Shown: piece after piece, positions 6,451 through 50,405 of the stretch | Layout of the letters: each line of letters opens with the position of its first letter | How positions within the stretch are numbered: the first letter of the stretch is position 1 | NCBI GenBank assembly: GCA_032718475.1 | Contig: JAUCBJ010001486.1 | Span: forward strand, 32,458-96,457 | Direction of reading: 5' to 3' | DNA length: 64,000 nt | Source: Nemertoderma westbladi | Lineage: Eukaryota; Animalia; Xenacoelomorpha | Position numbers and translations under genes: made by a program | The notes under the pieces: model-generated | Seen by the model: only the letters and a program-made list of their open reading frames with translations | The model's database searches: none | Told to the model about the DNA's origin: nothing

Positions 6451-6493
6451 ACCACGTACGCGTTTCGACCTTACTGGGTCTCATCAGCGTGGT
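6451..6493 (-). ncRNA. Minimal type I hammerhead ribozyme (Penelope-type)
   Basis: Minus strand ACCACG-CUGAUGA-GACC-cagtaa-GGUC-GAAA-CGCG-UA-CGUGGU: 6-bp stem I, 4-bp stem II, intact core, short palindromic stem III, GUA cleavage triplet. A degenerate inverted copy (CTGTTGA) lies at 6503-6535. Confidence 0.9.
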
Positions 6494-6649
6494 GTCGTCG
6501 ACACCACGCTGTTGAGACCCAGTAAGATCGAAACATAGGGATTAGTCCTACAATTGCGCCAATAAAAGATAATAATAATAATAATAATAAGTTATTTTCG
6601 GTAAAATAAACTTATCATTCGAGGTTAAGACCCTTAGATCCCTTCCTAT

Positions 6650-11190: not shown

Positions 11191-11215
11191 GAAAACCTGA
11201 CCTAACCTGACCTGA

Positions 11216-15483: not shown

Positions 15484-15496
15484 TGGTGACCCGGAC
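15484..15496 (+). promoter_or_regulatory. Primer-binding site (tRNA-Trp-like)
   Basis: TGGTGACCCGGAC just after the 5' LTR; close to the complement of the tRNA-Trp 3' end (TGGTGACCCCGAC). Confidence 0.75.
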
Positions 15497-15548
15497 AGCC
15501 AGAACCTTTAATAAACATAATTTATCAATACAACACAATACAGCAATA

Positions 15549-16409: not shown

Positions 16410-19400
16410 ATACCCTCAGTGTAAAAGCTGCGAACACTGAGGGTGAAGGTGCAGCCGTATTCTTGTTTACCGCGGCACTACTAGGCTCAGTAAACTCGCA
16501 AGAATGTTCTACCTCCTTCCTTGTGGATACGGGATCACAAGTCTCTGTACTCCAACCAAACACTGTGAAAAATTGTATTTGGAATCATACAACAACTAAA
16601 CTCACTACAGTATCAGGGTCCAACATCAACGTCCATGGGAAAGCAACTATCCGAGTAAAAATGCTCCGTAGAATATTTCAATGGACGTTTTATATTGCAG
16701 ACATTACTGACAATATTCTTGGGTTGGATTTTCTCTCTAATTTCAAGTTAATTCTAGATTGCGGTGAAAAACAAATAATAGACAAAGATACATTACTCAG
16801 CCGACAATTACAAACATCAAATTCAAAGAGTTTCGGTATACGGAAAGTAACTTTGACACACCCCAACGATTGTTTAAACAAACTGTTAACCAACTATTCT
16901 GAATTATTCGACCCTGAATTTGCGTTTCAGGGCCCTCCAAAAACAGACACAGTTCATCGTATAATCACAACGGATTGCCAGCCCATTCACGCAAAACCAC
17001 GCCAGTTGAGTGGTCAGAAACTAATAATTGCCAAAGAGGCATTTGCAGACCTACAAGAGAAGGGAGTAATTCGCCCATCGAGTAGCCCATGGGCATCACC
17101 GCTTCATATGGCACCGAAACACAACCAAAAAGATCAGTGGCGTCCATGTGGGGATTATAGGGGATTAAACCGAGTAACACAACCAGATCGATATCCAGTC
17201 CCTCACATTAGCCACTTCCACAACCAGTTCAAAGGCTCTACAGTGTTCAGTAAAATCGATTTGACCAGGGCCTACAACCAAGTCGCAGTAAATCCAGAGG
17301 ACATTCCGAAAACGGCCGTTGTAACACCCTTCGGTTTATACGAATTCGTCCTTATGCCCTACGGATTAAAAAACGCGGGTCAGACGTTGCAACGCCACAT
17401 GAACGAGGCCTTTGGCGATCTACCCTTCGTTTTCATCTATGTGGATGATATCATAATACACTCAACAGATAACGATGAACATTATCAACATCTAGAAATT
17501 GTATTCGAGCGCTTGAGAAAATATAACCTAAAGGCGAACTATTCAAAGTGCGTATGGTTTCAGTCATCGTTGGTATTCCTCGGTTACTTGGTTTCATCCG
17601 AGGGTATATCCCCTCCAAAAGAGCGTGTCGAGGCATTAAACAGTATGCCTGAACCGACCAGTTACAATGAACTGCGCCGTGTACTCGGGATGTTTAACTT
17701 CTATCGACGGCACATCCCAAACTACAGTTCAATAACAAATATATTACAAACGTTATTGAACAGCACGCAACCAACGAGCAAGAAACTCCCAAAAAGGAAC
17801 TTTATCGATGACGAATGGACCGAAGAACACTCCGCTGCATAGAACACTCTGCTGCATTTGCGTCATTAAAGAAATCCCTTTCAAATGCTATAACTCTACA
17901 TCACCCCTCTACAACCGACTGTCCAGTGTCGATCACAATTACTAGCGACGCATCCAATATAGCTATCGGTGGGGCGCTACACGAGGTCGACTTACAAGAG
18001 GACGCATCACCATTGGGTTTCTACTCACGGAGACTCACTGAAAGAGAACAGAAGTGGTCCCCATTCGAAAGGGAATTGTTAGCAGCATACGAACTGGCAG
18101 TACGTTATCGCGAAATTATTGAAGGACGTCATGTAACTCTATATACCGACCACAAACCTTTGGTCGGCGCATTCGACAAAGCAAGTAGCCTCTCCCCGAG
18201 ACAGAACAGACAACTTTCGTTTTTAGCGGAATATATCGACAAGATAGAATATATACCAGGAAATACCAATATAGTCGCCGACACCCTGTCAAGGCAGGTT
18301 GCCGCAACACATATTGATTCATTCGGGCTAGATGAATTAGCCGAGGCACAAAGTATTGATACAAACTTACTTTCTAAACCAACCTCATTTAATATCAAAA
18401 CATTCAATATTGCCTCAGGTAAACCGCTTCTTTGCGATACCAGTACACCGTATCCGCGTCCCATTGTTCCAGAAACACTCCAAAAAGTAATCTTTGATGA
18501 ACTTCATAATTTATCACATCCAGGTATCAAGGCAACCATTAGACTAATAACAGACAGATATATTTGGATCAATGCTAAACGGGACATCGCGAACCTATGC
18601 CGACAATGTATTCCATGTCAAACAGCCAAAATCAATCGACATACGAAAGCCCCACTAGAACCTCTTCCATTCTCAAATCGGTTCTCACATCTTCACACCG
18701 ATATCGTGGGACCCCTACCTGAATTAGATAACCAACCGTACCGTTATCTTACAACGTTTATCGACAGAGAAACTGGGTGGGTCGAAGCGGCTCCAGTAAG
18801 TTCAATAACAGCCGTTGCCATAGCAACCGCGTTTCTTAATTGCTGGTTCGCACGTTTTGGCGTCCCATTACAGTTATCAACGGATCGCGGATCTCAATAC
18901 GAATCGGAACTCTTTGCAGAAGTTGCCAAACTCATTGGATTTCATAGAATGAGAACTACCGCGTACCACCCTCAAGCTAATGGCAAAATCGAACGCTTTC
19001 ATCGAGTACTTAAAGCCTCCCTAAAAGCTCGAGGATCTGATTGGTTGTCGTCACTGCCAATCATTTTATTCAGCCATAGAATCACGCCATCCCACGTCAC
19101 CGGCATATCACCCTTCGAGCTAGTGACCGGGACACTGCCTTTAATCCCATCCAGTTTGGTAGTGCCGACAGACGTGACATATAACCATGATTTTGTTAAA
19201 CTGCTTCATAAACATGTATCTGAACTAGGGTTTATCGCTCAATCTAAGTATATGGACCAACCGAACCCAAACCGACTCATCAAGAGTTACATTCCAACAG
19301 CATTACAGACCAGCGACAAAGTCTTTGTACGGGTTGATAGAGTGAGGAAATCGCTAGAGGCGCCCTACCAAGGTCCCTTCAGGGTTATCTCCCGTACCGA

Positions 19401-19500
19401 TAAACATTTTACCTTAGAGACACCTAGCGGTTCAAAGGTGATTTCGATAGACCGACTCAAACCATATCTAGACTTCAGACGTAAAATGAAAACTGTGTAG
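16406..19500 (+). CDS. pol: Gypsy Pol (PR-RT-RNase H-IN), reached by -1 frameshift and broken by a 17-bp duplication at 17824-17857
   Basis: LVDTGS, YVDD, SDAS..IGGAL, HPG..C..C, DIVGPL, TDRGSQY, NGKIERFHR, PYQGPF. Confidence 0.92.
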
Positions 19501-20165
19501 TGGTGGTCGCTCCGTGTGATACCTGGGGGAAAAATAATAATAATAAGATTACTGACTGTTCTGATAGGTACTACTGTACTATGACTGTACCAGGAGCCAG
19601 GAGCTCGGTACTGACTGACTGATGGCATTTATATATATATATATATATCTGTATATCGTATTGCTTGTTATATATATTGTATATGTATTGAACATCTGAA
19701 TGGTATTACACTGACTTTATGAGATAACGATATTATATGTTGTTCTCCCAACTACCTTCGTTATAAGACCTGGACACTGACTAAATCACTTGAACAACGA
19801 ATTGATGGTTGCTACACAAGACTACTAAGGGCAGCCCTAAACATCAGCTGGAGACAACACATGACAAACGCCGAGCTTTATGGTACAATACCACCTGTAT
19901 CAACCACCCTCCGTGAACGCAGATTAAGATTCAGTGGGCACTGCTGGCGAAGTAAAGACGAGGTCATACCAGATCTACTTCTCTGGCAACCAACTCATGG
20001 AAAGCATAGTCGTGGACGACCTGCCATAACATATATAGATCAACTTGAAAGGGATACTGAACTTGGGAGAAACGAAATTGCGACAACTTGGAGAATCGCG
20101 AAGCCTGGAAGGATCTCATTTCCACAGTCCGAGTTCGCTCGACCTAGTAGTAGTAGTAGTAGTAG

Positions 20166-21598
20166 ATACAGAACGGGTGATGGGTGATTGTAGACCTCCA
20201 AGTACACTACAGATATTAGATACAGAACGCGTGATGGGTGATTGTAGACCTCCAAGTACACTACAGATATTAGATACAGAACGGGTGATTGTAGACCTCC
20301 AAGTACACTACAGATATTAGATACAGAATGGGTGATGGGTGATTGTAGACCACCAAGTAAACTACAGATATTAGATACAGAACGGGTGATGGGTGATTGT
20401 AGACCACCAAGTACACTACAGATATTAGATCAGAATGGGTGATGAGTGATTGTAGACCACCAAGTACACTACAGATATTAGATCAGAATGGATGATGGGT
20501 GATTGTAGACCACCAAGTACACTACAGATATTAGATACATAACGCGTGATGGGTGATTGTAGACCACCAAGTACACTACAGATATTAGATACAGAACGGG
20601 TGATTGTAGACCTCCAAGTACATTACAGATATTAGATACAGAACGCGTGATGGGTGATTGTAGACCACCAAGTACACTACAGATATTAGATACAGAATGG
20701 GTGATGGGTTATTGTAGACCTCCAAGTACACTACAGATATTAGATACAGAACGCGTGATGGGTGATTGTAGACCTCCAAGTACACTACAGATAATAGATA
20801 CAGAACGGGTGATGGGTGATTGTAGACCTCCAAGTACACTACAGATATTAGATACAGAATGGGTGATGGGTTATTGTAGACCTCCAAGTACACTACAGAT
20901 ATTAGATACAGAACGCGTGATGGATGATTGTAGACCACCAAGTACACTACAGATATTAGATACAGAACGCGTGATGGGTGATTGTAGACCACCAAGTACA
21001 CTACAGATATTAGATACAGAACACATGATGGGTGATTGTAGACCACCAAGTACACTACAGATATTAGATACAGAACGGGTGATGGGTGATTGTAGACCTC
21101 CAAGTACACTACAGATATTAGATACAGAACGCGTGATGGATGATTGTAGACCACCAAGTACACTACAGATATTAGATACAGAACGCGTGATGGGTGATTG
21201 TAGACCACCAAGTACACTACAGATATTAGATACAGAACACATGATGGGTGATTGTAGACCAACAAGTACACTACAGATATTAGATACAGAACGGGTGATG
21301 GGTGATTATAGACCTCCAAGTACACTACAGATATTAGATACAGAACGGGTGATGGGTGATTGTAGACCACCAAGTACACTACAGATATTAGATACAGAAC
21401 GCGTGATGGGTGATTGTAAAACTCCAAGTACACTACAGATATTAGATACAGAACGGGTGATGGGTGATTGTAGACCTCCAAGTACACTACAGATATTAGA
21501 TACAGAACGGGTGATGGGTGATTGTAGACCTCCAAGTACACTACAGATATTAGATACAGAACGGGTGATTGTAGACCACCAAGTACACTACAGATATT
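20166..21598. repeat. 54-bp satellite, right part
   Basis: Same unit as 12707-13544; the long ORFs here are artefacts of a stop-free 54-nt unit. Confidence 0.97.
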
Positions 21599-22133
21599 AT
21601 TCATTCTTTTATTTTATTTCATTATTCTATAAGATATGAAAAAAAATACATTTGAAAATTCGAAGTCTTTGGTATAATTTTAGTTAGAGCCAATTACCTA
21701 CGTCGCGCTAGACATAGGTTTGGGGCTTCTATCTATGAGAAATAACTGGCCCACTAAATTTAGGGGCTTTATTAAATAACGCGAAATAAACGGAATCTGA
21801 AAGGGCTGACCCTGGCCCACCTACAAATTACAATACAAATTAACTAATTTTGTGGTTAGATTTTCAGACTGTTATGAACCTAAAACAATTAGATTTTCAA
21901 TCGACTCAAAATATAAAAATTTTAAAAATTAGAATATGGTCGAACTAATTATAATTAGTCACTGTGAATAAAATAATGTAAATAATCTGTCTGACTAATA
22001 AGGGAAGCAGCTTGTATATTCGAATTATTTGGTAAGGATTTATGCGACATAATAATATATGAACCGAACACGAATATATTGCAATGAATAAAAACGATAT
22101 CAAATGGTATATAAAATGATTAATTATTCGACT

Positions 22134-23126
22134 TTATGTAACTGAGTTGGTAATTACAGGACTAATGACGTAATGGCCTCTTTGCAACTGAGAGATATAG
22201 ACCTTGCACTTAACCCCGTCAGTTCGTTTAACCCAAACCTCATTGCCGTTTATAAGAGTTATATAACCTTCTATCATCCGTTCCCGTGAGTCTGCCGGTT
22301 CCACAACCACTTGCGTTCCTCGCGAGAAGCAACGGCCGCGGTAGTACAGCCGTCCGTCTACCGCGCGGATCCGATACGGAGTCGGTTTGTACGAAGCGAC
22401 TCGATGCGGAGTCGGTTTGTACGAGGCGACTCGATGCGGAGTCGGTTTGGTACACCGCGCACGCGATATCGCGGCCCAGTCTTCCATTATCTCGCGTTCC
22501 CGGAGCATATAGACGAGATACGGTCCGGAGACAACGACCGGACTCCGGTCTCGTTTAGCCGGACGAGAGAAGCGACGGGGGCGATGGTACTCCGAGTACT
22601 GCGTGGAAAGTTCCGCGCGTTGCCGTTCCGCTTCCAGGGATCGCATCGAGCGTTCCACATCGCCGCGTAGAAAGTCGGCTAGAGCCGCTTTCTCGGAGGA
22701 CAACGTTTGCAACGAGGATTGTAAGTCACAGTCGTAGTTCTTTGAAACCGACTCGATCTGCAACTCGCGGGTAATTTGGCCAATTTCTTTACGAATATTC
22801 CAGGATTGTTCCAAACGATCGCGTTGTAGTTGGAATTCCGCAGCCGTTCCATCCTTCACCTTTACTATCTGCAGTTCCACTTGCTTCAACCGTTCTCTAT
22901 ACAGCTGCTCCTTAAGGTTTTCGAACTGTTTATCCAACTGCTCGAGTTCCTTCACGACGCATTGTCTCCGGATCTCGTATTCGTCCTCATCCACTTCCGA
23001 CGAACTAATAATCGAATCTTCCTCTTCCGATGACGATTTTCCCGAACCCTCTTTAGTTTTGCGTTTTCGTTTGGATCGTGTTTGCCGAACGTTTTGCTGT
23101 TCTTCTATCAATAAATCGCTTGCCAT
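22134..23126 (-). CDS. BRMS1: BRMS1/BRMS1L-like Sds3-family Sin3-HDAC subunit, single-exon ORF (330 aa from ATG 23126)
   Basis: Acidic N-terminus, LEQLDKQFENLKEQLYRERL coiled coil, SPVVVSGPYLVYMLREREIMEDW signature and a C-terminal EVWVKRTDGVKCKVYISQLQRG segment. Confidence 0.88.
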   Translation of the reverse strand: MASDLLIEEQQNVRQTRSKRKRKTKEGSGKSSSEEEDSIISSSEVDEDEYEIRRQCVVKELEQLDKQFENLKEQLYRERLKQVELQIVKVKDGTAAEFQLQRDRLEQSWNIRKEIGQITRELQIESVSKNYDCDLQSSLQTLSSEKAALADFLRGDVERSMRSLEAERQRAELSTQYSEYHRPRRFSRPAKRDRSPVVVSGPYLVYMLREREIMEDWAAISRARCTKPTPHRVASYKPTPHRVASYKPTPYRIRAVDGRLYYRGRCFSRGTQVVVEPADSRERMIEGYITLINGNEVWVKRTDGVKCKVYISQLQRGHYVISPVITNSVT

Positions 23127-23254
23127 ACTGCAATTATGTCTTACGTACTGCAGTAGGCCAGTAGGCCTACAGATGTACAGTACAGTACAGTACCGGCAGA
23201 CCGGCAACAATACTGCCTGAAAACATTAGTGACAGCACTAACAGACTAACTGAT

Positions 23255-24632: not shown

Positions 24633-25750
24633 ATTTTTTCACCAATTTCAAATTTGTGTAAAAAGACTTTATTCGTAATTTTTCGACTCATGTAAAGTAA
24701 TACCAGACTTTTTGCTGTTATATTTCACTTTGTAGTATAAAGTACTATACATGCACATGTGAAGAATACCAGGTTTTGACACTCAGCCGATTGTCAGACC
24801 AACAGCTGTGCAGAGGCTTTATTCAAATATTTTGCGAGTAAACGCTTTATTGCTGAGCTTAACTACAGATCCCCGTAGCTACCGGACGGTTTCTGAAAGC
24901 CACAGCCCCACAAGAGAGATTTTCTTCTAAAGAAGCTCGGTAATCGAATAGACATAAAATTATAAGACTATTATTCTGTTTTAAAATGTACGCGGAATGC
25001 ACCGACCGATCTTTATTACTAGTTTTCCGTTTAGCGAAATAGAACTCTGTCCGAAAGGTTGAGTTTTACACGAGTTTGTAAGTTTTACTGCCAACATGTG
25101 GAAAATTCAACACACGAATAGGGGAGAATATCTTAATTTCAGATAGCGGTGCAATTTGATCGCAAGTGAATAAGTGATCTTCATCGCAAATTGACCGCAA
25201 ATAAAATAAAACTTTCGTTTATTGTTTTGGTTAGAAAACGCAACCTCTGCTCCTTTCCCTTAATGTTTTAAATTAAATGGTTTACTAGGTTACATCCACT
25301 AAAACACATAGTTGGTGTTTGCGGTTATTTTGCACCGTTGACCAGTTGACTCCTAAATTTTGCTAAATACAATGAATGGAAAGGCGTTGGAGCTCATGTT
25401 TTATTTTAAAATATATCACCAAGTGTTATCACTGGATACGTAAACGTACACACCAACTAACACTTTATTGTATTGTTCAATTAAGTACCGTACAGTTTAA
25501 ATTTTAAAAAATTCGTCTTTTTTCAATTATCCAGGTATTCGTATAGGTACTCATTGTTCATTGTTTTGGTTGGATTCAGCTCTTCTGAAACCTGGGTTTT
25601 TAGTTAAAACCTGGTATTCTTCACATGTGCATGTATAGTACTTTATACTACAAAGTGAAATATAACAGCAAAAAGTCTGGTATTACTTTACATGAGTCGA
25701 AAAATTACGAATAAAGTCTTTTTACACAAATTTGAAATTGGTGAAAAAAT
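24633..25750. repeat. ~145-bp inverted repeat pair (24633-24777 / 25606-25750)
   Basis: Reverse-complement match with no difference I could find. The left copy is flanked by the direct repeat GACACTCA. Confidence 0.93.
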
Positions 25751-32192: not shown

Positions 32193-32713
32193 ACACGAAG
32201 TGGGGACTTCGCGCAGCACGAAGTTGGCGAAGCCTTAGCGAATTGACACTGTTAGGGGGTGGGTCAATTTATGCAAATAGTTGTCGTTGTCACGTTGGCC
32301 CTCTAGCGGCAGACTGGAGAACTGCAGATGGATTCGCCTCCTTTGAAAGTCACAGCTAATGGTCTAATACATATCTGCCAAGTTTCAGCTTAAACGGATT
32401 AAAAGCAAAGAAATGGGAGGGCATTTAATGTTTAGACATGTGGCCCTCTAGCGGGAGACCATTGCACTGATGGTGTGATGGCGATGATGGTGATGGTGAC
32501 TTTTGCTCATATTGATACCTACAAATTTTCAACTTGGCAGCTTTAAATCCGACAAAGTTATTAGCATGTCAAAATCGTAACGACGACGACGACGACAACG
32601 ACGACGACGACGACAACGACGACGACGACGACGACGACAACTATTTGCATAAATTGACCCACCCCCTAACAGTGTCAATTCGCTAAGGCTCCGCCAACTT
32701 CGTGGCTCGCCCC
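32193..32713. mobile_element. HINE/Helentron-like MITE with ~75-bp subterminal inverted repeats and (ACG)n
   Basis: Inverted repeat at 32217-32291 / 32631-32705; same termini as 1003-3072; CCAAGTTTCAG core motif. Confidence 0.7.
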
Positions 32714-34232: not shown

Positions 34233-34786
34233 AAATAGCTTAGTTTTGTTTAGTTATGCCTGTATAGTTATGTAGTTACTGTATGTTATGTTTTATCCGG
34301 CAAATACTGTAGAGTAAAATGATAATTATATAGTTATGCCTACTAATAATCCGTATATTACTATCTGGGGACCATATTTAGCAGTAAATTAGTACAATGT
34401 TATCAGTTCTTTATAACTGTCGATTATATAATAATATCATATGATGCAAAGAAAATTGATCTGTATTATGTCCAGTATCATTCATATTGTTTTATGAAAT
34501 AAATCCATTAATTACTGTGTGATGCTGTGTCTGTCTTTAAAGGCGCGGTAATCCATGTATCCAGAGTGTGAGTATATGGTAGAGCTACATAGAGGTAAAG
34601 GCGATGTCCTTACTGCACTGCCTTACTGTCAGAATGTCAGACTCCTGTATAAGGGAAGGCTATCTGACTACGCCTTTCAGGGAAATAATGGGGACAAACA
34701 AAGCACATATTAATACGTGTACTATATCCGAAACTGAAAGTTTTTAAAAATAGAGGTGTAATATTATGGTTTTGTCCAGAAGTGGG

Positions 34787-34895
34787 AAAAATGAGAAAGC
34801 GCGTCACCGGGGGTTGAACCAGCGCTATACGTACATTTCGGCCTAACAGGCCTCATCAGTAGCGCTAACCAGCTCAGCCACTAGCCCCTGACACT
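34787..34895 (-). ncRNA. tRNA-like Pol III transcription unit containing a hammerhead ribozyme
   Basis: Minus strand: A box TGGCTGAGCTGG (34880-34869), hammerhead, B box GGTTCAACCCC (34820-34810), TTTTT terminator (34791-34787). Confidence 0.8.
34821..34866 (-). ncRNA. Type I hammerhead ribozyme
   Basis: AGCGCUA-CUGAUGA-GGCC-uguua-GGCC-GAAA-UGUACG-UA-UAGCGCU: perfect 7-bp stem I, GC stem II, intact core, near-palindromic stem III, GUA triplet. Confidence 0.92.
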
Positions 34896-37800
34896 CACAC
34901 TCCCACCTAATCCACTCCTATTGAACGGGCAGTCTTAAGTTGCTTATATTCCATCTCTAACAGCGGACCTAACGGCCTCAAGTATGATACTGTAGAGTGA
35001 AACAGGAGGGATGTACAAATAAGTAGATATTCAGCTCGAGTATTGCTTCCAGGTGATATTAATTAAATAAATTTGTAAATAATTTTTTTTTCCATTTCTG
35101 AACAAAACCATAATATTACACCTTTAATTACAGTTGCAACATTGTAAAAGCTTTTGCGGACATAACAAGTCATTTTCCCGCAATGCGCAGTGTAGGTGCT
35201 TTTGCGGACATAACAAGTCATTTTTGCCGCAATGCGCAGAATACTCTAAGATAGCCCTAAATTTATCCAACGACGGGAAGAGATTGGAGCTCAGATGACG
35301 AAATCTGTCAGCTGATTTCCTGTAGACGTGGAACCTCTTTGTTCTGCCTATTCAGCCAATCAGAGTGATTTTCACTTTATGTTGGACAGAGGCCTATGGA
35401 AAACCGTGCAATGCATTACGGTCTTTGTTTACCTTTTTCTGAGCCTAAGAACCGGCTTGGAATTTTCTGTACTTCTGTGTAGAAGTTTCAGACTTTGGCC
35501 TAAACATCTGATGGCTTTGATTATAAGAACGTAAAACTATTAACAATTCAACATTGCTGCACATGGAACACTGCATAAGTAACACATACTGACTGTTCAC
35601 TGCATTATTTTACTTCTGTCATTAATCGTTGTTATATTGATGGATATGTTGTTATATTTGGAGAATACCGATAAATAATCATAAAACCCCTAATCTTCTT
35701 GATTACTGAAGGTGAGAGGAACAGGTTTACCGGTAGCAACTGCGACTTACATTATAGTGGTTTTTGTGTGAATTAAATGCTATTTCATAATCCCTACATG
35801 TGTCAGTTGCGATCCTCCTTATATATGATCAAATTCAGTGACGGTCGGCAGATCAGTGCGAAATAGTGTGAAGTAGTGTGAAGTCGTATGAAGTAGTGTG
35901 GACGGTCGGCAGATCAGTGCGAAATAGTGTGAAGTCGTGTGAAGTAGTGTGAAGGTTAATAAAGCATCTCCTAAAGAATGCGCTATTTACGAAACTCAGT
36001 AGCCATCTAGTTGTGATTAGTATAAGTCATAACTCTGTTTTTATACTTAAAGCGCCACGTCCTAAAGGAACTGTTAATATTTCCCCGAAAGTAAATATAT
36101 TGTCAGAGATTATATAGTAACGATCAATCGAATAATACAGTAGGTCTACACCGCAATCACTATCAAAGCATCCGAATCCAGTCTCCCTTAACTGTGGGTG
36201 AAAGGTCGCGCACAGACTGGCTTCGGCTGATGTAACTTCAGTACATTAAATAATCGATATAGGCTAAAGTCGATTTATAAACAAAAGGACAACTAAAATT
36301 GGCAGGTTAAACTGCTAAAGGTCTAAAAGCGCGAACATTAATAGTTGTAAACTCTTGATTGCACAGTAGGCAATAAATATATTTGTCTATTGTTCTGGTA
36401 AGAACAATAATATATTTTAGTTTCTTTATTGCACTGTAGGCAATAAAGCCGAATGTACCGGTCGGACGGTAAACTGTAGGCCTAACTGCCCAACCACCCG
36501 AACCGGTACGTACAGGTGCCAGTATTAGTTCGATTATGAAATATTGTATATTGTAGGCTGTTAGGGGATTAGGGATTGATCACCCCTTATTCCTTTGTAT
36601 GGTTTACTTATTTCTGTCAGTTTTATTTATCTGTAAGTGTAATATTGAGCAGAAGGCGTGTAAGCCTGCTCAGATTGTACAAATAATTTGTAGGCCGGAT
36701 TGTTGTCTAACTGTTGTTAGGTCTGAAGCGATTGCAGTGTGTGTAGAGTGTCTGTCCGATAAAGTGCTGGTTAGGAAGGTGGGGGCATCCAGTGTTATAA
36801 GGTAAATCCCCCCGAAAGAATAAGTCGTACTACTTGGTTAGAACGCCTACTAACTAACCATTTCGGAGTCTGCATATACTGTAGTTTATTTAGGCTTGCC
36901 AGTAGTCTGCCAGCATTTGGTCTGTATTTTGTTTGTATAGTCTGCACGGGTAGCGTAATATTTATTATTCAGAGTCTATGCGAGTATTCGCAACCACCAA
37001 CTCCCCAAGTTTATTCCTACAGTAATTGTGTTTGTTATACATACCGTTATAGTTAAATTAACCCCGGTACTACATCAGGGCTGCTTGGCGTATGTAAAGA
37101 CTGGTGATTTTGTGCTCTGGTCACTCCAGCAGATACCATGGTTCTTTTGGCTATTCAAGTATATTTAACTGCTGGTTACTTGTTGTATAAGTACTTGTAC
37201 CTAATTTAGGGTTTAGAGTACAGTACTTTCCGAAAGTAATTTAGTGTGTGGGCAGTATATTTGTGTTGTAACGTGGTTAATAGGCACGTTAGCTCTGGTT
37301 GGCTTCGGTAATTAACCTCTAGGTAAGGACACTTCGGGTACATAATGTAGTACTTATAGAGCTAAGACTATAAGTTGTCAGACGGTGGTATTTCCTTATC
37401 TGGACAACGCAATTTATTTACTACTACTTTATTGTTTTCAAATACCGTAGTTTCCTGTCAGTTTGTAAGAACCAGAAATTCTAACTCCTTGTTAGGATGG
37501 TTTGTAGATTTCTTGTAAAATTACCCTAACAAATTGTAAGTGTAACTTTTAGTGTTTATTTTGAGATTGTAATCTCAAACTGTAATTGTAAGTAATTTGT
37601 AGTGATAAGTAACTTAGTAAAGTAGAATTATTCGTTTTAGTATCCAACAAGTAGCACTCCACTGAGAGCGTTCAGCTTCTGTGTAGTGACTCCTTACCCA
37701 GGAAATAATAACATTTATTTCAAATATTGTCAAAACCCATTGTACGGGTATATATATATATTATAAATCAACTTAAACAGATTTATAAAATAGTAGGCCT

Positions 37801-38182
37801 GTTATACATCAATTAGGTCTTAATATCAGTTGGACTACTGCTTAATAACAGTAATAAGTAAAAGGGAAGTAACCCTAAAATTCAGAAATTCGGTTATTAG
37901 CAATAATTGACATTACCGGTATTTACGGTAGGCTTATTATATTTATTTCTATAAATTTAGGCTGAAATTATATACCAGTATTCTGTGACTAATCCTAGTC
38001 TATAATAATACTTATATATATACTATAAGTGTATACCGGTATTTTAATATATTATATATATATATCACGTTACACTGAGTAACGGTATCGGTAATTAATT
38101 ACTAGGCTTACAGTTGATACTGAATTACTAGACTTGCTTTGACTGTCGTTATAGTAGTAGGCATTCAACTGTAAAATAAATT

Positions 38183-41100
38183 ATGGCTGACACAAAGCAA
38201 ACACTGTCAGATAGTCTCCTAGAAAGAACAGTCTGTGACTCAGATAGGAGTATAGAAAAATCTGAGACCGAAGTCCAAGTCCCCTCCTACTGTAAGAAAG
38301 GTCATCCCTACAGTAGTAGTATCAGACCCTAGGCTAGTAAAGCACCATAGGTCTATCATAGGCACTAGGGCTCAAGTCAAGCGGGACCAAGAGGCAGCTG
38401 TTAAACAGCAGCAGCACCCGAACCGAGAACTTATTTATCAACGGCCTGATAACTCTAGCAGTTCAAACACCGAAGAGTTGACACCCGAGATCGGAGCAAG
38501 GATGGCAGAAGTGGTTTATCCACTCATCCAGATCCACTTCTAATTCTTCCTGGAGCCGTACTCACTAGAGTGTTGATAGCTGTGGAGGAACATCAAATAG
38601 ATTGGGCGAGAAGTAAGCGATCGACCAGGGACAGTTATGCGGGACACATGATGGAGGAATTAAGGTCTATTGTCGAGGCGCAATTGAAATTCCCCGGACC
38701 CGGACTCCCATTTGACTTATCGGAAGCTGCCTGGGAGGACTTATACAGGATGGGAGTAGTAAGGGACACTCGAGATCCGGCTATGTGGAAGAGGTCGGCA
38801 GCAGGATATGTCCAGGGATTCTTCAGTTCTTTGGAGCGATTAGAAGAACACCTATTTCAACAACGACAAGGACCTCAAGAGCAGGGAGAGCTGCTTTATC
38901 AAGTGCGAGAACAAATTTTACAGATCAGACTAATCCTTTCAGCCTTTGAGGAAGCCTCGAAGAGGAGCCAAGACACATCGTTGCAAGTGGCCGTAAAAAC
39001 TTGGTTGCAACGGGTGAGTCTTAAAGTCCAGGGAACGACACAATGGAAAGCTCAGCTAACTGAGCGCATAACCCACGGAGAATCAACAGACGCTACCTTT
39101 TCTCAGGTGGAAGGCGAAGTTACATCCGAGAAACCTCAGAAGAAGGATGCTATTGACATCTATCTGTCGGACTATCAACGATTTATAGGTGACAAAGAGT
39201 TAAGGAGACGGCTAGCTGGACTTCACCCTAATAGTGAGGGAGCCAAATTTGTGTTGGAACTCGTTAGATGCGGAAATATTAGCCGCGGAGCAGGCTAAAT
39301 TTGATGAAAGCATCCTCATCGCAATGGACCAAGAAGAGCAGCTAAAGAAAAAGCAAATAGAAGACCGAAGGTCAGCGGCTGCGGCAGAATCTGAAAGGAA
39401 AGCGGCAGCGGTCGCGGCAGAATCTGAAAGGAAAGTGGCAGAGGCTGAAAGAAAAGCGGCAGCGGTCGCGGCAGAATCTGAAAGGAAAGTGGCAGAGGCT
39501 GAAAGAAAAGCGGCAGCGGTCACGGCAGAATCTGAAAGGAAAGCGGCAGAGGCTGAAAGAAAAGCGGCAGCGGCAGCAGCAGAATCTGAAAGAAAAGCGG
39601 CCGTGGCTGAAGCAGAAAGACGGGCATCGGAAGAGACAACCCAACTAGAGTTGGAAAATCTTCAAGCGAAGCAAGATTACTTAAATAAACAGAGAACAGC
39701 TACTCAGATGCAGCTGCTAAGTCGATCTACTCCCAGGAGACAGGGATTTACATCCTCTGATGAAGGTGATATAACAGATCCTGAAGGTAGAGGAAATAAA
39801 TCTCGTTCCAGCGGACGTAGAAGAGCGCCACACCGGCAGAAATTACCTAATTTGCCTCCAGCTGTGAGAAGGCAACTAGCTAGTGTAGATTTAAGTAATC
39901 CTGAGCCTACAGACCAAATTATTAGAGTAGAAAGACTCCCTACTATAGTAGATGAGCCTGAAATAATTAGGCCTGTTCTCGAAGCCACTCCCTCTGTGAT
40001 AGAGACACCTGTACTTCCAGAACCTAACTCTAAATTCCCTTTGCACAGTACTAAACTACCTGTGCCCAGTAGACTAGCCCCTGAATCACTCCCAGTCCTG
40101 GATGCCGAGCAAGACATAAATGACTTGTCGCCCGTCGTCCCTACGCATCAACCCGCTACTATGTTGGCGGCTCCCACTTCGGCGGTTGAATGGGTAGAAG
40201 AGGGACAGCGGGGGATGGATCGCCTGCTCGGGCAGCTGGAGGAACATAAATTACATTCTTCCCAGCAGGTCCGAGAGTTGGAAGGGACTGTTCAGCAGTT
40301 AAAGGGAACAGTAAGAGAGAGTAGGTTAGAGTTGCAAGAAGTGCAGCAGAGTATCGCTTTAGAGCGCGATAAATTAGTAAATATACAAATGGGTATACCA
40401 CCACCCCCTGTAACGATGTGTCAACCTGTTAGGTCTGAAGTATTTCATGCGCAAGGTGTGGAGCCTACACGCATCTATACTGCTAGTGAAGTAGAAACTC
40501 CTATAGTAAACCCTCTTAAGGGTAATTATAAACCTGTTGATAATGATATTCCATATAGACCTGATCATAATCCGAGAAATTTATATACCGATAACTCGAT
40601 ATTAAATAATACGATGGCCCAAGAAAGTTTTACGCATCAAAGGGCTAGAACCGAAGCCCGTCAAGCGGTAAAGGTGGGAGAGGTCGTCAAGTTCAATGGA
40701 GATGATATGAAATGGTTACCTTTTAATGAATATTATAAAGATAACATACAGAACTCTGTACTATCTAACGGAGAGAAACTTAGATTCCTCATCGAGTGCT
40801 TGGAAGGACCTCCCAAGTTAATGGCGTTAAAGTTTATTGGACATCCAGATGGATTAAGACAAGTTTGGGATACACTAAACATCAGGTATGGTAATAGGAC
40901 TAACATAGCTAGGTATTTGTATGCGAAATTAGTAGCGCCCCGAAAGTTCCTTAGCAGCGGGATTATAGAGTTTTCCGATGAGATTTATAGGAGATCTGTA
41001 GACAACTAGATTGGTTAGGTAAGTCTCAGGAATATCAGAGTTCCATGGTTGTTGGAGCTGTAGCATCTACTTTGCCAAAGGGTGGAGTCGGTACTCGTTG

Positions 41101-44100
41101 GGACAAAAGAGTTCTCTATATGATGGACCAGCAACAAAGGGACCCTACCATGGCTGATCTCATGTCATTCTTAAATGGAGAGGTAAGATTACAGCTCCTA
41201 AAGCAGTCCCGAGAGAAGACACCGGAAACTAAGGTGAGTGAAAAACCCGTTTCTAGGAGAAAGGTAACACCAGTGTGTTATATAGACGACGGCGAAAGCC
41301 AAACCTCCCACGAGGAGAACAGCGGGAAAGACACCGAAAGTTCTTATTATGTCAATAAAACTCGGAAAGACGTAAGTAAATCTAAGTCTCGAACCAGTGA
41401 CAGGAGAGAACAGGTAACAACAACTCCTCCCACGTCTCCTAAGAGAATTCATGGAAGAAAGCCCGAGGAAAGAACAGGTATGCACAACGCCACACAGGTT
41501 AAAGTAAGTAATATCAAACCCAAATATGCATTGTGCGACGGGCCCCATCGCTTAAGTGGGTGTGATGAATTCTTGAAGAAATCCCTTAAGGATAGACGTG
41601 ATGTCATGTGGGATAAGCGGTTGTGTTATAATTGCCTCAGACGAGGACACCAACGGCAGACCTGTTACTCCGATGCTAGGTGTGCTAAGTGTGGCGCGAA
41701 ACATCATATCTTGCTGCACACAGAATTTGACAGAACCCGCACGAGTCAGGTAAGTGAGCCAGAACTACATGTCCAATTCATGTGAACGACACTGACCACA
41801 GCTCTGAGATGGAAGGATTCTACACGGACGAATTCTCTGACGAAAACGAATCCTGTTATATGATAAACACCGCAGTGTATCGAGCACTTACGTATGAGAC
41901 TGAAACAAGCGATGAAGATCCTCGACTGACTATTCTGGACCGGCAACCATCTTGGAAAGCACCGACTTCCAACGTCGGAATCCAGGAATTCCCTGTAGTG
42001 CAGCTGAGAGTCCATGGACTAGGGAAAAGCTTGATAGTAAATGCCCTCCTTGACTCCGGCAGCACAGGTACATTCATCGACAAAGAACTAGCCGAAGACA
42101 TCTTTGCTGGACAACCCAAGTTCTGAACTAAGTTGAACCTTTCAGGAATTATGCAGGTTTGGAAATCCACAGTAGCTACAGATTACTATGTGGGTGCGTT
42201 GTCCACTCCCCAGGATGAACTAGGAGAACATAGCATAAGGTCAGTAAAAATGGTGGCGATAAAGAACTTTGCTACCAGCCAAGTGGAACCTTACAACTGG
42301 GATGAAGACCATTTTACCCAGCAGCATGATATCCCTAGATTCAACACCGACTACCCAGGGGTGCAGATATTAATCGGCCAAAATGCGCACGAGGCGCTTG
42401 AGACATTAGAAAAATGGCCTGCTCGACCGCAACCATTACAAACGTACGCGGGAAGAATGAGAGTAGGTTGGTACTTCACTGGACCTTCCCGTAGAACACT
42501 AATGGAAAGACTCCCTCATGAGAGGATACATCAGGTGAGTGAATGGGAAGAAGAAATCAGTGAGGGAGAAACCACAACTGAGGGAACACCATACTCCTCA
42601 GATAATGACGATATTAACCAATTATACGACGAGGAAAATACAATCGACCTCCTCACCAAAAATGAAACTTGGTTAAACCAAGTAAACCTGTGCCATCTCA
42701 TCAATCATGGCGGACAATTCACCTACAACGATGAATTAAACGAAGTGATAGATCGATACAACAATAAAATTCGCGATGAACACGCCGTACGATTCTTTAC
42801 TCAAGAAGCCGTAGAGCCTAATTCCTACGACAAGGCCTTGTCCATCGAGGAAGAGAGAGCCAAGCAGATTCAGGAAATGACTACCTGTTTTCTGAAAGAT
42901 GAAGGTCGCTATGAGATTGGTCTTCCGTTCCGACGGCGAGAACCCAACTTTATAAATAACCGACCTTTAGCGGAAAAGAGAATCGCGCAACTACATCGGC
43001 GTCTTACGGCCAATGTTTCAGCTAAGGAAATGTATAAAACCCAGCTGAAGAAATTTATCGATAAGGGATACGCGGAGCGAGTACCGGAAGAAACACCCAT
43101 AACAGAGAGAACGTATTATCTAACACATCATTACGTTCCCAAACCCGGTAAACCCAACGAAGTCCAGGTAGTGTTCAACGGCTCCGCCCTTTACATGGGT
43201 CAATCCCTGAACTCTGAATTGTTGCCGGGACCCAACTTACTCCAATCCTTGTTGGGAATACTATTAAGATTACAGCAATATTCTATCGCTTTCGCTTCGG
43301 ATATAGAAGGCATGTTCTAACAAATCAAGGCGCTGGATAGGGATCGAGACAGCCTACGATTTCTGTGGTGGCCTGAAGGAGACCTCAACCAAAAACCGGT
43401 GGAGTACTGGATGACCATCCAGGCTTTCGGGATCATCTCGAGCCCCTCGAACACTTGTTCAATAGTACGTACCACTGCTGATGACAACCGAGACGCCTTC
43501 TCTAAAGCGGTTATCGACAACATCAAATGGGATATATACATGGACGACAATTTAAAGTCCCTCCCACCGGTGGAAGAAGCCATTGATGTTGCCAAGGGAA
43601 TGGTGGAGTGCTTGCAACGCGGTGGATTTCGACTAACCAAATTCACGAGTAACTCCCGAGAGTTTCTGGAATCGATCCCGGTAGAAGACCGAGGTGTTAA
43701 AGATCTGGACCTCATCAAGGACGACCTTCCAGAAACCAAGACACTTGGTTTAAAATGGGACACGGAGAGAGATATCTTGTTTTTCCAGTTAAAACAGCGA
43801 GATAATCCAGTTCGAACTAAACGGATTTGTCTAAGTATCCTGAGCACTTATTTCAATCCATTGGGATTTATTAGCCCAGTTATATTGGTTGCTCGGAGCT
43901 TAGTACAACAAATGTGGCTTGAAAACCACTCGTGGGATGATCCACTTAAGGGAGAACTACTAAAGAGGTGGATGAAATGGGAAGATTCTCTACCATCCAT
44001 CGAGAACTTTACGATTTCCCGTTCATATTTTGGTCACGTTCTCCCCACATATTCCTATCAACTCCATGTGTTTGAAGACGCCAGCGATATGGGAATAGGT

Positions 44101-46422
44101 ATAGTAGCCTACCTGAGGGTTGAAACTCCAGATGGAATTAAAGTTGCCTTGGTCACCTCTAAGGCCTTGATAAACAACAAACTACGAGTTCCTCGAGCAG
44201 AGTTAAAGGCGGCTCTATACGCTACAGCCATCGGCCGGAATGTAACAGAACAGATCGACTATCCACTGGAGAAAACTGTCTATTGGACTGATGCTTTCCT
44301 CGTTTTGGAGTATATAACCAATGAAGTCTATCAGTTCAGCGTCTTCGTTACCAACAGAGTAGCCATTATACTTAGTCGCTCTAATGTAGATCAATGGAGA
44401 CATTGCCCTGGGACGATTAATCCAGCCGACATCGCCTCCAGAGGAGCAACTCCTCATGAACTGATAGATACTCCAGACTGGTTAGGTGGACCCGACTTCC
44501 TAAGTAAAGAAGAGGATGAATGGCCTCCTCATCTTACCACGGCTGAGATTAGACAAGCCAAGGGAGCGGAGGAAGTCAAACCTAAAACCCGGATGAGTAA
44601 ATCAAAGTTATTTAAACCCATGATAGATCTGTCTGTACTACACATTTCCAGGGACGACGCTGTGGATCTAAACTCCCCCACCACGAACAGATCTGTTATA
44701 GACATCAGAGAAAGAGACTGTAAATCTGGAACACCAGACGTCTCGCAAGGACTCTCACCTCTCCTGCAGAGAGCAATAAATCACTATAGCTCCTGGAATC
44801 GGCTTTGCAAGGCTGTCGTGTATCTGAAGCGATGCTTCCATCATCACTATTCCAGGACGAAGATCGCTAGTGATACCGCTCCACTGACATCCGAGCAGGT
44901 CCATGCTATTAAAGATCTTCCCACATACAAGGTGTCGGATAGGTTTCTGACGGAGAAGATCAGTTACCAAGAGCATGAAGCAACCAATAAGCAGATACTG
45001 AGACTCTTGCAATGCTATGAAGATTCCGATAAGTATTTCCTGTTGTTGAGAAATCCACAGATGCGCTTAAGGGATCGTTTCTCTAGCACAATGATAGATG
45101 GGTTAATACGTGTTGGAGGGAGACTAACTAATGCTCCATTATCCTTTGACACTAAATTTCCCATACTCATTAGAAATCTTGAAATACAAATCAAGATGAT
45201 TGTAGATGTTCACAGTAGGCTTTACCATGCTGGTAGAGAACGAGTTCTTAGCGAAATTCGAACTCGCTATTATTTCCATAAACCCCGTAGAGCTCTGAAC
45301 CAAATTCTTAGGAACTGTATATCCTGTAGGAAAGCATTCAGTAGGCCTTTAACACAGCGAGAGGCAGAATTACCTAGGGAACGAGTAAGCTTCTATGAAC
45401 CACCCTTTACTAATACTGGTGTGGATTTATTTGGCCCTATTGAAGTATATTGTGCTAGGACTATAGTCAAGCGATGGTGTGTCATCTTTGTCTGTATGAC
45501 TTGTAGAGCGATCCATCTAGATATGGTGAACGATCTATCTACCAACAGCTTCATACTGAGTTTACGCCGACAGATCGCTCGCTTTGGAACTAGCAACACG
45601 ATGAGATCTGATAAGGGAATGAACTTCATTGGCGCCAATAATGAGATCAAAGCTTACGTTAAAGATTGGAACCAAAGACAGGTGGATGATCAGCTAAGGG
45701 TAACATCATCTAGCTGGACCTTCAACGCCGCCGACGCCCCTTGGTGGGGAGGAAGTTGGGAGAGATTAATAAGGAGCGTGAAGACCGCATTTCACTTTAT
45801 AGTGCCTTGCCGCTCGTATCTCACCGACGAACTTTTGCGAACGTTAATGGAAGAAATCGCCGCCTATCTTAACGAGAGACCGCTTATGCCAGTCTCATCG
45901 AGTCCCGACTCCCTAGAAGCGCTAACACCCGCGCATTTCCTACTGAAGAAACCTGTAGCCATGCTCCCACAATCGGAAATCACGGACGGAGACGAATACT
46001 GCCGACAAACTTGGCAACTCATGCAGTTATTATCCCGTCGTTTCGCTGACCATTTCGAAAATCATTATCTGCCTACGCTACAACTTCGAACTAAGTGGTT
46101 TGCGCAGCAAGAAAACGTCAGCGCCGGAGATATGGTCCTTATTATGGAATCAGATCTTCCACGTATGCGGTGGCAGACAGGTTGTATCATCAAGACTCAT
46201 ATATCCGATGATGGTTTAGTGCGATCGGTAGAACTCGTCGTCATGCGACGTAACTTTAAGAAACCTGGAATTGTATTCGAAACACAACAACTCAATCGCC
46301 CAGTCGGTCGTTTATGTTTACTGGAAAGAGACAGAGAGCTATCCGGAAACTATGGAAGGCAAGATACTCTTCCCACGACCACCTCCCTAATCCAACAAAC
46401 ATCTAGGGACTCCTCAACGTAA
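38183..46422 (+). pseudogene. BEL/Pao gag-pol of copy A with several frameshifts and stops
   Basis: Fragments align to the 2625-aa ORF of copy B: triple Cys/His Gag motif, ALLDSGS, YMDD, HVFEDAS, DLFGP, SDKG, WWGGSWERL. Stops at 42124 and 43318. Confidence 0.93.
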
Positions 46423-48158: not shown

Positions 48159-49052
48159 ATGACTGAGTTGATAGAAGATGATCTTGGTATCAGGGAGCGA
48201 TATACTCTACCTTTACAAGCGTTTGTCGATAGCTTGATACGTGGCGATGCTGGTCCAACTACTACGGAGGATGATGGTCATTATATCGAACCGCCAATGT
48301 CCCAGGAGCAACTTATGCGTGAATTGGATTAAAGAAAGTTCACCGCTCGCTATACGCATCGTAATGGTACGTATATGGACTTCTTAACTACTGGTCATCC
48401 TATCGATTTACACGATACGGACGATGTAGACACCCAAAGGGAAATGGTCCTATTTAAATATCATACCCAGCGGAGTCGGAACGATAAACTGAGAATCGAA
48501 CATGAGAATTCTATTCGAAACTGACTCGAAAGAGAAGACTTTGAAGAACCGGATAAACGCAGTGACTTCAACGACTATTTGGAATTCTTGAGAGAAACAT
48601 ATCTCAATGTAGCCAGTCAACAAAACCTAGAAACTCGATATCCTCAAGGTATACATCATGACCCTATGATAGAACTCAAACGACTCTATTTCACTATGAT
48701 GTATCTTACCGCCGATCGACCGCTACCTGTTGTACCGGATAGCTTCGAACAGATGGAGGAATATTGTAAAACTGGAGAAAGATCACCCGCGTTTCCCCTA
48801 CAAGAAGTGCGTCTTTGGTATTATTGCGATGAATGCCCTAGACCCAACCAACAAATGTAAAGACATAAACATCCGCGGAGATGTTGCGCTAAACACAGTT
48901 TTACTCGCTATACTTACGGGAGTTTCGAGCAAAACTTGTTCGATGTATCACCTACGCTCGCTCGACTCAAACGATCCTTAAATAAACCGATGATCAGAGT
49001 TCCGGAATACTCGGTCAGATCTCCTCATTCCCTGGTGAGACCTCAGACTCTT
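48159..49052 (+). pseudogene. Accessory 3' ORF of BEL copy A, N-terminal part (3 in-frame stops, no frameshift)
   Basis: ATG at 48159; a single frame runs to the insertion site. Homologous to 51480-51749 (-), where two of the stops are sense codons. Confidence 0.8.
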
Positions 49053-50405
49053 TGTACGCGCTTTTGAAGACCTTTAGCAGTTTAACCTGCCAAAATTTAT
49101 ATGTCTTTTGGTTTATAAATAGACTTTAGAAGTTGACAAATATTTAATACCAATAAACACAACATTAGCAGAAGCCAGCCTAGTGCGCATCCATTCACCC
49201 GCTGGATATACCCGGGAGACTGGATTCTGAGGGCTTAGATTATTATTGCAGTGTAAGCTTACTGTATTATTCGATTGATCGTTAATAATTAATTTCTGAC
49301 TAATATTATTCACTTTCGGGAAATATTAACAGTTCCTTTAGGACGTGGCGCTCTATCTAGGTAAACAGAGATATGACTTATACTAATCACAACGGTAAGT
49401 CGGTAAGGCTTATGATTCACGTATGAGGCGCATTCTTTAGGAAATGCTTAGTTATCAGTCACAATCATGCACACTACCGGTACCGGTAACACACAATACT
49501 GCTCACTAATTTGCCGACCGTCAATGAATTTTATCATATATAAAGAGAACAGCAACGGACTCATGTAGTGCTTATCAAATAGCATTAGGTTCACTACAAA
49601 TCACAATAATATAAGTCGCAATCGCTATATATAACCCGTCTCTCTAACCAGTAGTGTATCAAGAAAATTGGGAAATTTGGGTTCTTTATAGATGTTATCC
49701 AAATAATATTCAACCAACTGATACAAAATATGACAACAGCAAACAGCAGCACAACAATGTATGTTGAACCGATAATGCAAGACTGAACGGAGTTGCACCG
49801 ATTGTTATGCACTGATAACAGTTATACGCTCTATAATTTAAGCCTACTAATGTTTCTTCTAAAGTATGAAAACGAGTTGACTCTAGAGCCGGTGTTCCTG
49901 GCCTAGATAGAAACAACACAACAGTAACAAGAAAAACAGTAAGACTGAACACTCCTAGCATGATCTGCCAAAATATCTCCACATCGACAGAAAAAATCGC
50001 TCTGATTGGCTGTTAAGCTAAACAAAGAACCATGTGTCCAATGGCCGTTTCCATGTCAGCAACCAGCTGTTAGATGTCGTAATCTGAATCATCAAGGCTA
50101 AGCTGTGCCAGGGTATTTGGTGCATTGCGGGTTTTTTGCCTTACCATGTCCGCCAAAGCACACATATAGAAGAATGACGTTTATGTCCGTTAAAACACCT
50201 ATAACGGTACCTTGCGGGCGAGGGGGATATATATATAGTTAGAGAGCTTTTTAGAGTATTCCAGCGCCTGGGGGGAAACTGGATTGCAAAGCAAAAGGGC
50301 CAGTTATATCCCACAGAAGCTTTTACACCGCTCCCAGAAAATGGGATTTGAGTCTATAAAATATACAAAATCACAGTTTCTAATATACGTAAATACTCTA
50401 AACAG

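Follow-up and report, generated by a model that had tools for sequence, protein, structure and literature searches.

Introduction

The non-LTR retrozymes of animals are noncoding units of ∼170 to 400 nucleotides (nt) that carry a type I hammerhead ribozyme with a short helix III; they are described as having a low GC content, a very high copy number, head-to-tail joining into tandem dimers to multimers, and dispersed monomers, and they are proposed to depend on Penelope-like elements (PMC7229834; 10.64898/2026.07.22.740005). Linear and circular monomer RNAs and the ligation of the circles by RtcB have been described together with the unit size (PMC7229834), and a recent preprint proposes the copying of retrozyme circles by a Penelope-like enzyme (10.64898/2026.07.22.740005). 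The canonical animal type I hammerhead is given as having a helix I of ∼6 bp, a helix II of 4 bp, and a helix III of 1 to 2 bp with a palindromic loop (PMC4209133); a helix III of 2 bp plus a tetraloop is the invertebrate type, and invertebrate retrozymes are reported to cut efficiently as monomeric repeats (PMC7229834). According to one review, animal retrozymes seem to lack promoters (PMC7761336), and the word “promoter” occurs 0 times in the retrozyme preprint (10.64898/2026.07.22.740005).

A tRNA-type RNA polymerase III (Pol III) promoter and a type I hammerhead are joined in the high-copy, SINE-like Sm-alpha and Sj-alpha retroposons of Schistosoma, in which an upstream copy must transcribe the next one (PMC6765202, PMC2770079). 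The promoter is drawn ahead of the hammerhead in these repeats (PMC6765202), and tRNAscan-SE still recognizes their tRNA part as tRNA-Gln (PMC2770079). Penelope-like elements and their pseudo-LTR hammerheads have a palindromic stem III and a tail beyond the ribozyme; their hammerheads are of the minimal type, and their promoters are described as internal, overlapping a spliceosomal intron (PMC4209133, PMC8557442). Their insertions show 5′ truncation, partial tandems, and an inverted truncated 5′ copy that forms inverted repeats (PMC8557442). Helenus, Cassandra, and Ajax are nonautonomous LTR elements with Pol III promoters, in which the A and B boxes persist although no functional tRNA fold is left; besides their LTRs they possess a primer-binding site and show target duplications, and the paper on them reports no ribozyme (PMC10886601).

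Here we describe a high-copy repeat of Nemertoderma westbladi (Xenacoelomorpha) from a 64,000-nt stretch of contig JAUCBJ010001486.1 (referred to here as the window; all coordinates are positions within it). The window family resembles animal retrozymes in its unit size and noncoding nature, its type I hammerhead with a short helix III, its very high copy number, its head-to-tail joining, its dispersed monomers, and its proposed dependence on Penelope-like elements, and it differs from them in having consensus A and B boxes and a tract of six T's (T6), whereas the described retrozymes seem promoterless. It shares with Sm-alpha and Sj-alpha a tRNA-type promoter combined with a type I hammerhead, but its hammerhead lies between the boxes, such that cleavage would split the promoter sequence, and ARAGORN finds no tRNA fold; because Sm-alpha has the order promoter, then ribozyme, and a recognizable tRNA, we do not file the window family with it. 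The palindromic stem III, the tail beyond the ribozyme, the 5′ truncation, the partial tandems, and an inverted copy on the 5′ side are all shared with Penelope-like elements, while the window unit carries no reverse transcriptase (RT) or endonuclease gene, has a canonical 6-bp/4-bp hammerhead, and has tRNA-type boxes. Like Helenus, Cassandra, and Ajax it is nonautonomous and keeps its boxes without a working tRNA fold, and it differs from these LTR elements in carrying a hammerhead. We found no hammerhead between an A and a B box in a limited search of mainly open-access literature. Within the limits of that negative result, what is new is that the boxes straddle the cleavage site with T6 just behind them; the pairing of Pol III with a hammerhead was already known from Sm-alpha.

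Hammerhead and flanking Pol III-type boxes

A preliminary description of this locus had read, on the minus strand, a hammerhead with an intact core directly flanked by consensus A and B boxes and followed by a terminator-like T tract, and had likened the arrangement to Sm-alpha. The sequence reads as claimed, the boxes are strict matches, and the comparison with Schistosoma holds insofar as a Pol III promoter accompanies a hammerhead there too (PMC6765202, PMC2770079). The features of the region are as follows.

34880-34869, minus strand: A box, a consensus type 2 Pol III element (strict consensus match)
34821..34866, minus strand: whole type I hammerhead (sequence and descriptor match)
34866-34860, minus strand: 5′ strand of stem I, which has 6 to 7 bp (sequence)
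34859-34853, minus strand: hammerhead core, C3 to A9 (sequence)
34852-34840, minus strand: stem II, 4 bp (sequence)
34839-34837, minus strand: core, G12 to A14 (sequence)
34836-34829, minus strand: stem III, short and palindromic (sequence)
34828|34827, minus strand: predicted cleavage site (sequence)
34827-34821, minus strand: 3′ strand of stem I (sequence)
34820-34811, minus strand: B box, directly 3′ of stem I (pattern match)
34791-34787, minus strand: T tract, T5 in the window copy and T6 in the family majority, a likely Pol III terminator
34894-34889 paired with 34806-34801, minus strand: closing 6-bp stem, which makes the region a long rod (pair probabilities 0.93 to 0.99)

All conserved core nucleotides and the NUH cleavage triplet are present, and the helix sizes match those of the canonical animal type I hammerhead. 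A U at position 1.7 and an A at the end of loop II are also present, residues that would take part in a tertiary contact between loop 1 and loop 2. The hammerhead is likely to be self-cutting. The same 7 letters, which are self-complementary, flank the core on both sides, so stem I could, speculatively, have begun as an insertion duplication.

The box and hammerhead motifs exceed chance expectation. A strict type I descriptor matched twice in the window (at 34859 and 6487, both on the minus strand) and never in 150 simulated 64-kb windows. A strict A-box and B-box pair occurs once in the window and in 0 of 20,000 dinucleotide shuffles of the 121-nt region, with a loose A box in the pair appearing in 4 of 20,000; when the 326 nt of the unit present in the window were shuffled instead, the strict and loose pairs were found in 0 and 9 of 20,000, respectively. 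The B box is the only match to the B-box pattern on either strand of the window, and every fixed position of both boxes has the consensus letter. The T tract is the only run of at least four T's on the minus strand of these 326 nt, and its position 27 nt downstream of T54 matches that in tRNA genes.

A search of the 34787-34895 hammerhead region against Rfam, a check put forward in the preliminary description, gave no match at gathering score; on a 101-nt stretch the only hammerhead matches, weak and far below threshold, were to RF00008 (12.8 bits, E value of 2.7) and RF03152 (12.1 bits, E value of 8.1), and RF00163 was not among the matches listed. These scores bar assignment to an Rfam family, not to the ribozyme class. 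ARAGORN, used as the corresponding tRNA check, found no tRNA in the box and hammerhead region at default settings, and it returned a single poorly paired call at a lowered threshold of 80% and poor calls alone when introns were allowed, again at a lowered threshold.

The repeat unit and its copies

Instead of the free-standing gene of ∼110 nt first proposed, the region is one part of a high-copy unit of ∼341 nt, recovered in public contigs; the larger repeat at 34748-35141 had been missed. It is made up of the following parts.

34748..35141, minus strand: whole insertion, comprising a near-complete ∼341-nt unit and an inverted piece at its 5′ side (contig depth, inverted match)
34748..34786, minus strand: unit tail beyond the T tract, shortened in the window copy (matches 35086-35129 on the other strand)
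34895..35073, minus strand: unit body, noncoding (family contigs at about one-third of the depth of the ribozyme part)
35086..35141, plus strand: piece on the 5′ side of the insertion, an inverted copy of T tract and tail (inverted match, 371-nt contig)

We aligned contigs from three public DNA runs of three studies to the region (2,646 from X1, 1,415 from X2, and 115 from X4); X1 may be the source of the window itself, and X2 and X4 come from other studies. In these runs contig depth rises at ∼34750 and falls after 35141. The median summed depth in X1 is 198,000 at 7 listed sites (34801-34873) and 58,000 at 19 sites (34894-35026), with sites 34776-34796, 34883, 34885, and 35075-35083 and repeated rows left out of the medians. 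One flank contig with zero differences has a depth of 22.4, and the summed depth of the element is 2,600 to 8,800 times this value, a ratio that is not a copy number and is meaningful as an order of magnitude only. To that order of magnitude, the ∼341-nt unit is present in thousands of copies. No open reading frame (ORF) of at least 120 amino acids overlaps the unit body at 34895..35073, and the GC content is 41.0% over 600 nt containing the unit.

The loose contig ends after 35073, 35138, and 35141 are mutual reverse complements, and the tail joins the body head to tail; contigs with this junction at the three positions number 19, 30, and 23 in X1 and 9, 25, and 11 in X2, respectively, with 4 at 35141 in X4. 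One 371-nt contig starts at 34831, crosses the T tract and tail a single time, and comes back into the unit at 35073; its last 30 letters repeat its first 30, which gives a period of 341 nt. No listed family piece spans two hammerheads, the contigs being short and unable to show arrays. The depth of the tail beyond T6 is of the same order as that of the ribozyme.

Letters 39 to 94 of the 371-nt contig align at 35086..35141 in the direction opposite to the rest of the unit, and a 44-nt inverted match of 88.6% identity joins 34748-34791 to 35086-35129. Contig joints show that other copies of the family invert at other places, and no target duplication is visible around the insertion at 34748..35141. 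The window copy is a slightly decayed, nearly full unit with an inverted tail piece on its 5′ side. Copies of the family are often inverted or truncated at the 5′ end, and the 5′ ends of the listed pieces are staggered (34880, 34895, 34905, 34929, 34968, 34993, and 35044); a depth step near 34885 might mark a start site, a reading that we do not adopt given the spread of these ends from 34880 to 35044. The inverted 5′ piece with no visible target duplication and the staggered 5′ ends fit the insertion pattern of Penelope-like elements (PMC8557442).

X4 is dominated by a subfamily that differs from that of X1, as seen at 34873 (variant at 92% of depth in X4 versus 26% in X1) and 34883 (79% versus 10%). 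A high-depth joint from 34834 to 35084 in X4 resembles a fold-back centered on the stem III palindrome. The self-closing 371-nt contig in a further run, X5, was considered as a possible circular RNA and set aside; neighboring repeats are covered too, as by a DNA trace, with X5/X1 depth ratios of 1.7 × 10^-5 to 6.3 × 10^-5 on the element and 2.7 × 10^-5 to 1.7 × 10^-4 on the repeats at 35621-36382. This run bears another organism label, can be taken as RNA by guess only, and is uninformative on expression.

Variation among copies

The X1 variation set comprises all 28 differences at 3% of depth or more. Nine of these, located from 34776 to 35026, are private changes of the window copy, in that at least 95% of the X1 depth differs from it. 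One private change, at 34835, weakens stem III in the window copy by placing a U-G pair; with the majority letter stem III is a perfect palindrome, which bears out the near-palindromic stem III reported in the preliminary description. At 34786 the window copy differs from 99% of the X1 depth, and the majority letter extends its T5 to T6, so that the terminator-like tract first described as T5 is T6 in most of the family.

The catalytic core, stem I, and the B box have no variant at 3% or more in X1, and the only A-box variant at that level, G to A at purine position 34873, keeps the consensus. The four polymorphisms between 34802 and 34882 fall in loop III, the base of stem II (G-C to G-U), loop II, and the A-box purine position, and the variants at 34840 and 34832 disfavor the ribozyme fold, the two costs being 0.8 and 1.8 kcal/mol. 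The density of polymorphic sites in X1 is the same in the box and ribozyme part (4 sites in 81 nt) as upstream (9 in 191 nt). Polymorphism being no rarer there, conservation, which is weak evidence here, does not single out the boxes.

Predicted folding

The predicted fold of a 114-nt RNA is no more stable than those of its shuffles (z score of 0.08). The favored form of the region is a rod, with pair probabilities of 0.50 to 0.87 for stem I, 1.0 for stem II, and 0.93 to 0.99 for the closing stem. Past a 4-nt bulge, six pairs between the A-box and B-box strands (probability of 0.59 to 0.77) make a distal helix I. The two box strands would thus act as promoter in DNA and, paired as the distal part of helix I, as ribozyme scaffold in RNA.

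The preliminary description had drawn a D arm, a T arm, and a closing stem, with stem I in the place of the anticodon stem, and had suggested that the arms act as a switch. All three can be drawn, and the closing stem is strongly predicted, but the D and T arms have pair probabilities of 0.00 in the 110-nt RNA. For a cloverleaf that retains the ribozyme, the best T-arm register costs 10.7 kcal/mol relative to the ensemble and the other registers cost 16.3 to 16.6 kcal/mol; the best fold with both D and T arms, which disrupts stem I and the ribozyme, costs 5.1 kcal/mol, and there is no acceptor stem in register in the box and hammerhead region. These values tell against both the tRNA-like fold and the switch. 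A tRNA gene, with or without an intron, was also rejected, as neither ARAGORN nor the fold energies give a cloverleaf with an acceptor stem and an anticodon arm. We likewise rejected a model that treats the ribozyme as a 37/38 intron of a tRNA: stem I can occupy the place of the anticodon stem, but ∼3 nt of the D arm and 5 to 6 nt of the variable loop and T stem are missing.

In the family majority, stem III consists of 2 bp and a tetraloop, the invertebrate type that is reported to cut as a monomer (PMC7229834), so dimeric cleavage, suggested earlier from the palindrome, need not be obligate. The monomeric ribozyme fold costs 4.6 kcal/mol relative to the ensemble in the window copy, a value that the majority letter lowers to 2.8 kcal/mol. 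Self-duplexes of the stem III 8-mer are predicted at −9.8 kcal/mol for the majority, −8.8 kcal/mol for a common loop variant, and −6.2 kcal/mol for the window copy; the dimer was scored as the 8-mer duplex only, its full fold being pseudoknotted. From these self-pairing energies, dimers are possible. The circularization imagined for the 110-nt RNA is not supported: a single cut yields one pair of 2′,3′-cyclic phosphate and 5′-OH ends, which RtcB could only reseal. A circle needs two cuts, and we therefore infer that transcription into the next copy would be needed.

Comparable loci in metagenomes

Sequence relatives of the family were found nowhere outside the N. westbladi runs and one trace run. 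Pattern scans returned at least 120 stretches in viral contigs (loose core and B-box pattern), 3 in prokaryote genomes (exact 19-nt stretch), and 98 loci in metagenomes; when the element was compared by BLAST with all 221 loci, only the 3 seed words matched, without hammerhead context. One viral contig from the loose scan carries a well-formed type I hammerhead with stems of 6, 5, and 6 bp (L100:260-360, minus strand).

The window family is absent among the 98 metagenome loci, which were found by a query for a core followed by a B box; the A box was not part of this query. An A box nonetheless lies upstream in 5 of the 16 loci with a stem II of at least 4 bp versus 1 of the 82 others, that one being tRNA-like. 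Four of these five loci are near-identical copies of one repeat, so that the set holds two distinct sequences, to which BLAST adds two relatives (L122 and L201). The members of the metagenome repeat family are as follows.

L134:36-125: repeat family member
L146: repeat family member
L162: repeat family member
L208: repeat family member
L127:1200-1284, minus strand: repeat family member
L201:271-360: repeat family member
L122:1190-1261: repeat family member

This family has a type III-like hammerhead fold in which stem-loop I contains the A-box motif and the B box lies just downstream, and it matches RF00008 at 27.6 bits (E value of 0.012), below the gathering score. The four near-identical copies have unrelated flanks, and their similarity ends ∼20 nt after the B box. 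One pair is changed on both sides, a count no better than that of the shuffled control. The family is probably eukaryotic, and a fungal origin is a guess. The design of a ribozyme between two boxes may therefore have arisen at least twice; we treat the metagenome family as a lead and not as support.

Discussion

The unit has a 341-nt period, is noncoding, has a low GC content (41.0%), and carries one type I hammerhead, as animal retrozymes do, and we are confident in identifying it as a non-LTR retrozyme. The motifs, the high abundance, the head-to-tail junction, and the truncated and inverted copies are all seen directly. The repeat was likely moved by a Penelope-like RT; a GIY-YIG family match was not found in the 18 ORFs scanned of the 42 listed in the window.

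For transcription, we lean toward the A and B boxes being a working Pol III promoter. In this reading, transcription by Pol III would begin near 34890 and end in most cases at T6, yielding an RNA of ∼100 nt that could cut itself once. A smaller share of the transcripts would extend into the following head-to-tail copy and be cleaved by both hammerheads, releasing a 341-nt monomer with a 5′-terminal B box and a 3′-terminal A box, which RtcB would close to a circle; a Penelope-like enzyme would then copy the circle starting from the tail, rebuilding the promoter across the junction and leaving truncated or inverted copies like that of the window. With the cleavage site between the boxes, their order would be reversed in the linear monomer, and a whole promoter sequence would exist only in circles and in DNA copies that span the junction. 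The reading we adopt, a working promoter that yields mainly the short RNA and is read through in a minority of transcripts, strikes us as close to an even call, and the complete chain, from retrozyme and Pol III promoter through circle to Penelope copying, is held tentatively, with about even or slightly poorer prospects. The second hammerhead element of the window, with its core at 6487, has no boxes, so the boxes are not a generic feature of such elements. Against the promoter stands T6, which is the family norm: five or more T's stop Pol III nearly completely in mammalian cells (PMC8466645). The tail depth is of the same order as the ribozyme depth, and therefore the copied RNA ran past T6. 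T6 is thus a puzzle, as the mobile RNA must run past it.

That puzzle favors a possible, though less probable, alternative, in which the repeat is an ordinary retrozyme transcribed by Pol II reading in from neighboring units, and the boxes and T tract are left over from the capture of a tRNA gene or SINE head and persist through their role in helix I or through the youth of the family. T6 would keep Pol III from producing the mobile RNA, and the published model for retrozymes is transcription by read-through (PMC7761336). Pairing between the boxes is predicted for the RNA, and they show no excess conservation. Yet pairing in a helix does not by itself require consensus letters, and all fixed box positions have them; the terminator-like tract has the spacing of a tRNA gene, and the acceptor stem has been lost where the boxes have not.

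It is improbable, to our minds, that the short T6-ended Pol III RNA is an abundant product that acts in trans, as a dimer partner for hammerheads in long Pol II transcripts that supply the circle. Such a role would explain why both promoter and terminator are retained; the stem III 8-mer of the majority, a perfect palindrome, has a favorable self-duplex (−9.8 kcal/mol), and cleavage in trans is reported for Sm-alpha in a review (PMC6765202). Against this role, a stem III of 2 bp plus a tetraloop is reported to cut in monomeric invertebrate repeats (PMC7229834), and the monomer fold with the majority letter lies only 2.8 kcal/mol above the ensemble. A broader composite, in which the ribozyme of a retrozyme is enclosed by a complete miniature Pol III gene, the boxes serve as promoter in DNA and as helix I in RNA, cleavage splits the promoter sequence, circularization rebuilds it, the short RNA licenses cleavage of long transcripts in trans, and the design arose perhaps twice, is unlikely, if less so than this trans-acting role taken as the explanation.

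The stand-alone tRNA-like Pol III gene first envisaged, whose D and T arms would turn the ribozyme on and off, draws on boxes and a T tract at tRNA-gene spacing and on arms that can be drawn, with a fold containing both 5.1 kcal/mol above the ensemble; membership of the region in a 341-nt unit of thousands of copies, the cost of a cloverleaf (10.7 to 16.6 kcal/mol), and the lack of any ARAGORN call beyond one poorly paired call at the 80% threshold make it very improbable. Least credible of all is a miniature inverted-repeat DNA transposon with the ribozyme as cargo: the window copy has a 44-nt inverted repeat on each side, one of them next to TTAA, and these may resemble Kolobok ends, but the ends are unequal (the right one is 12 nt longer), family contigs run on head to tail into the body instead of ending, and target duplication is not visible.

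If the boxes are a working Pol III promoter, the unit would be a natural compact cassette for the production of circular RNA. Promoter and ribozyme functions are separable by compensatory mutation, and therefore the question of how retrozymes are transcribed becomes testable in a 340-base unit that has the boxes inside the helix of its ribozyme. The ingredients (Pol III, hammerhead, and RtcB) are all known from Sm-alpha and retrozymes; the gain is therefore in architecture and not in a new class.

Neighboring repeats and genes

The window is rich in retrotransposons, with Gypsy-type, BEL/Pao, and LINE-type domains among the 18 of 42 ORFs scanned. A BEL/Pao-type element at 49052-63084 has an uninterrupted frame of 2,627 amino acids (51692-59575, minus strand) lying between direct repeats of 1,282 nt with 99.3% identity, and a broken relative, 81% identical, is inverted at 37914-46142. 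Within 11215-21599, two arrays of the same 54-nt satellite (12709-13544 and 20163-21599) enclose a LINE-type RT frame and a Gypsy-type block, and a 19-nt satellite of 78 copies adjoins this arrangement.

The second hammerhead element, at 6284-6635 on the minus strand, belongs to a different family and has inverted ends and a 73-nt fold-back at 6462-6534. It matches RF00163 at 26 bits (E value of 0.00033), below the gathering score, lacks a B box, and has no significant similarity to the first element (best E value of 0.064). Two fold-back elements, at 24633-25750 and 32217-32704, have terminal inverted repeats of 148 nt at 99% identity and 75 nt at 97%, respectively. An uninterrupted BRMS1/Sds3-like frame of 363 amino acids lies at 22134-23225 on the minus strand, its nearest relatives being eukaryotic and mostly in chordate clusters; this single-frame gene may be a retrocopy or one long exon.
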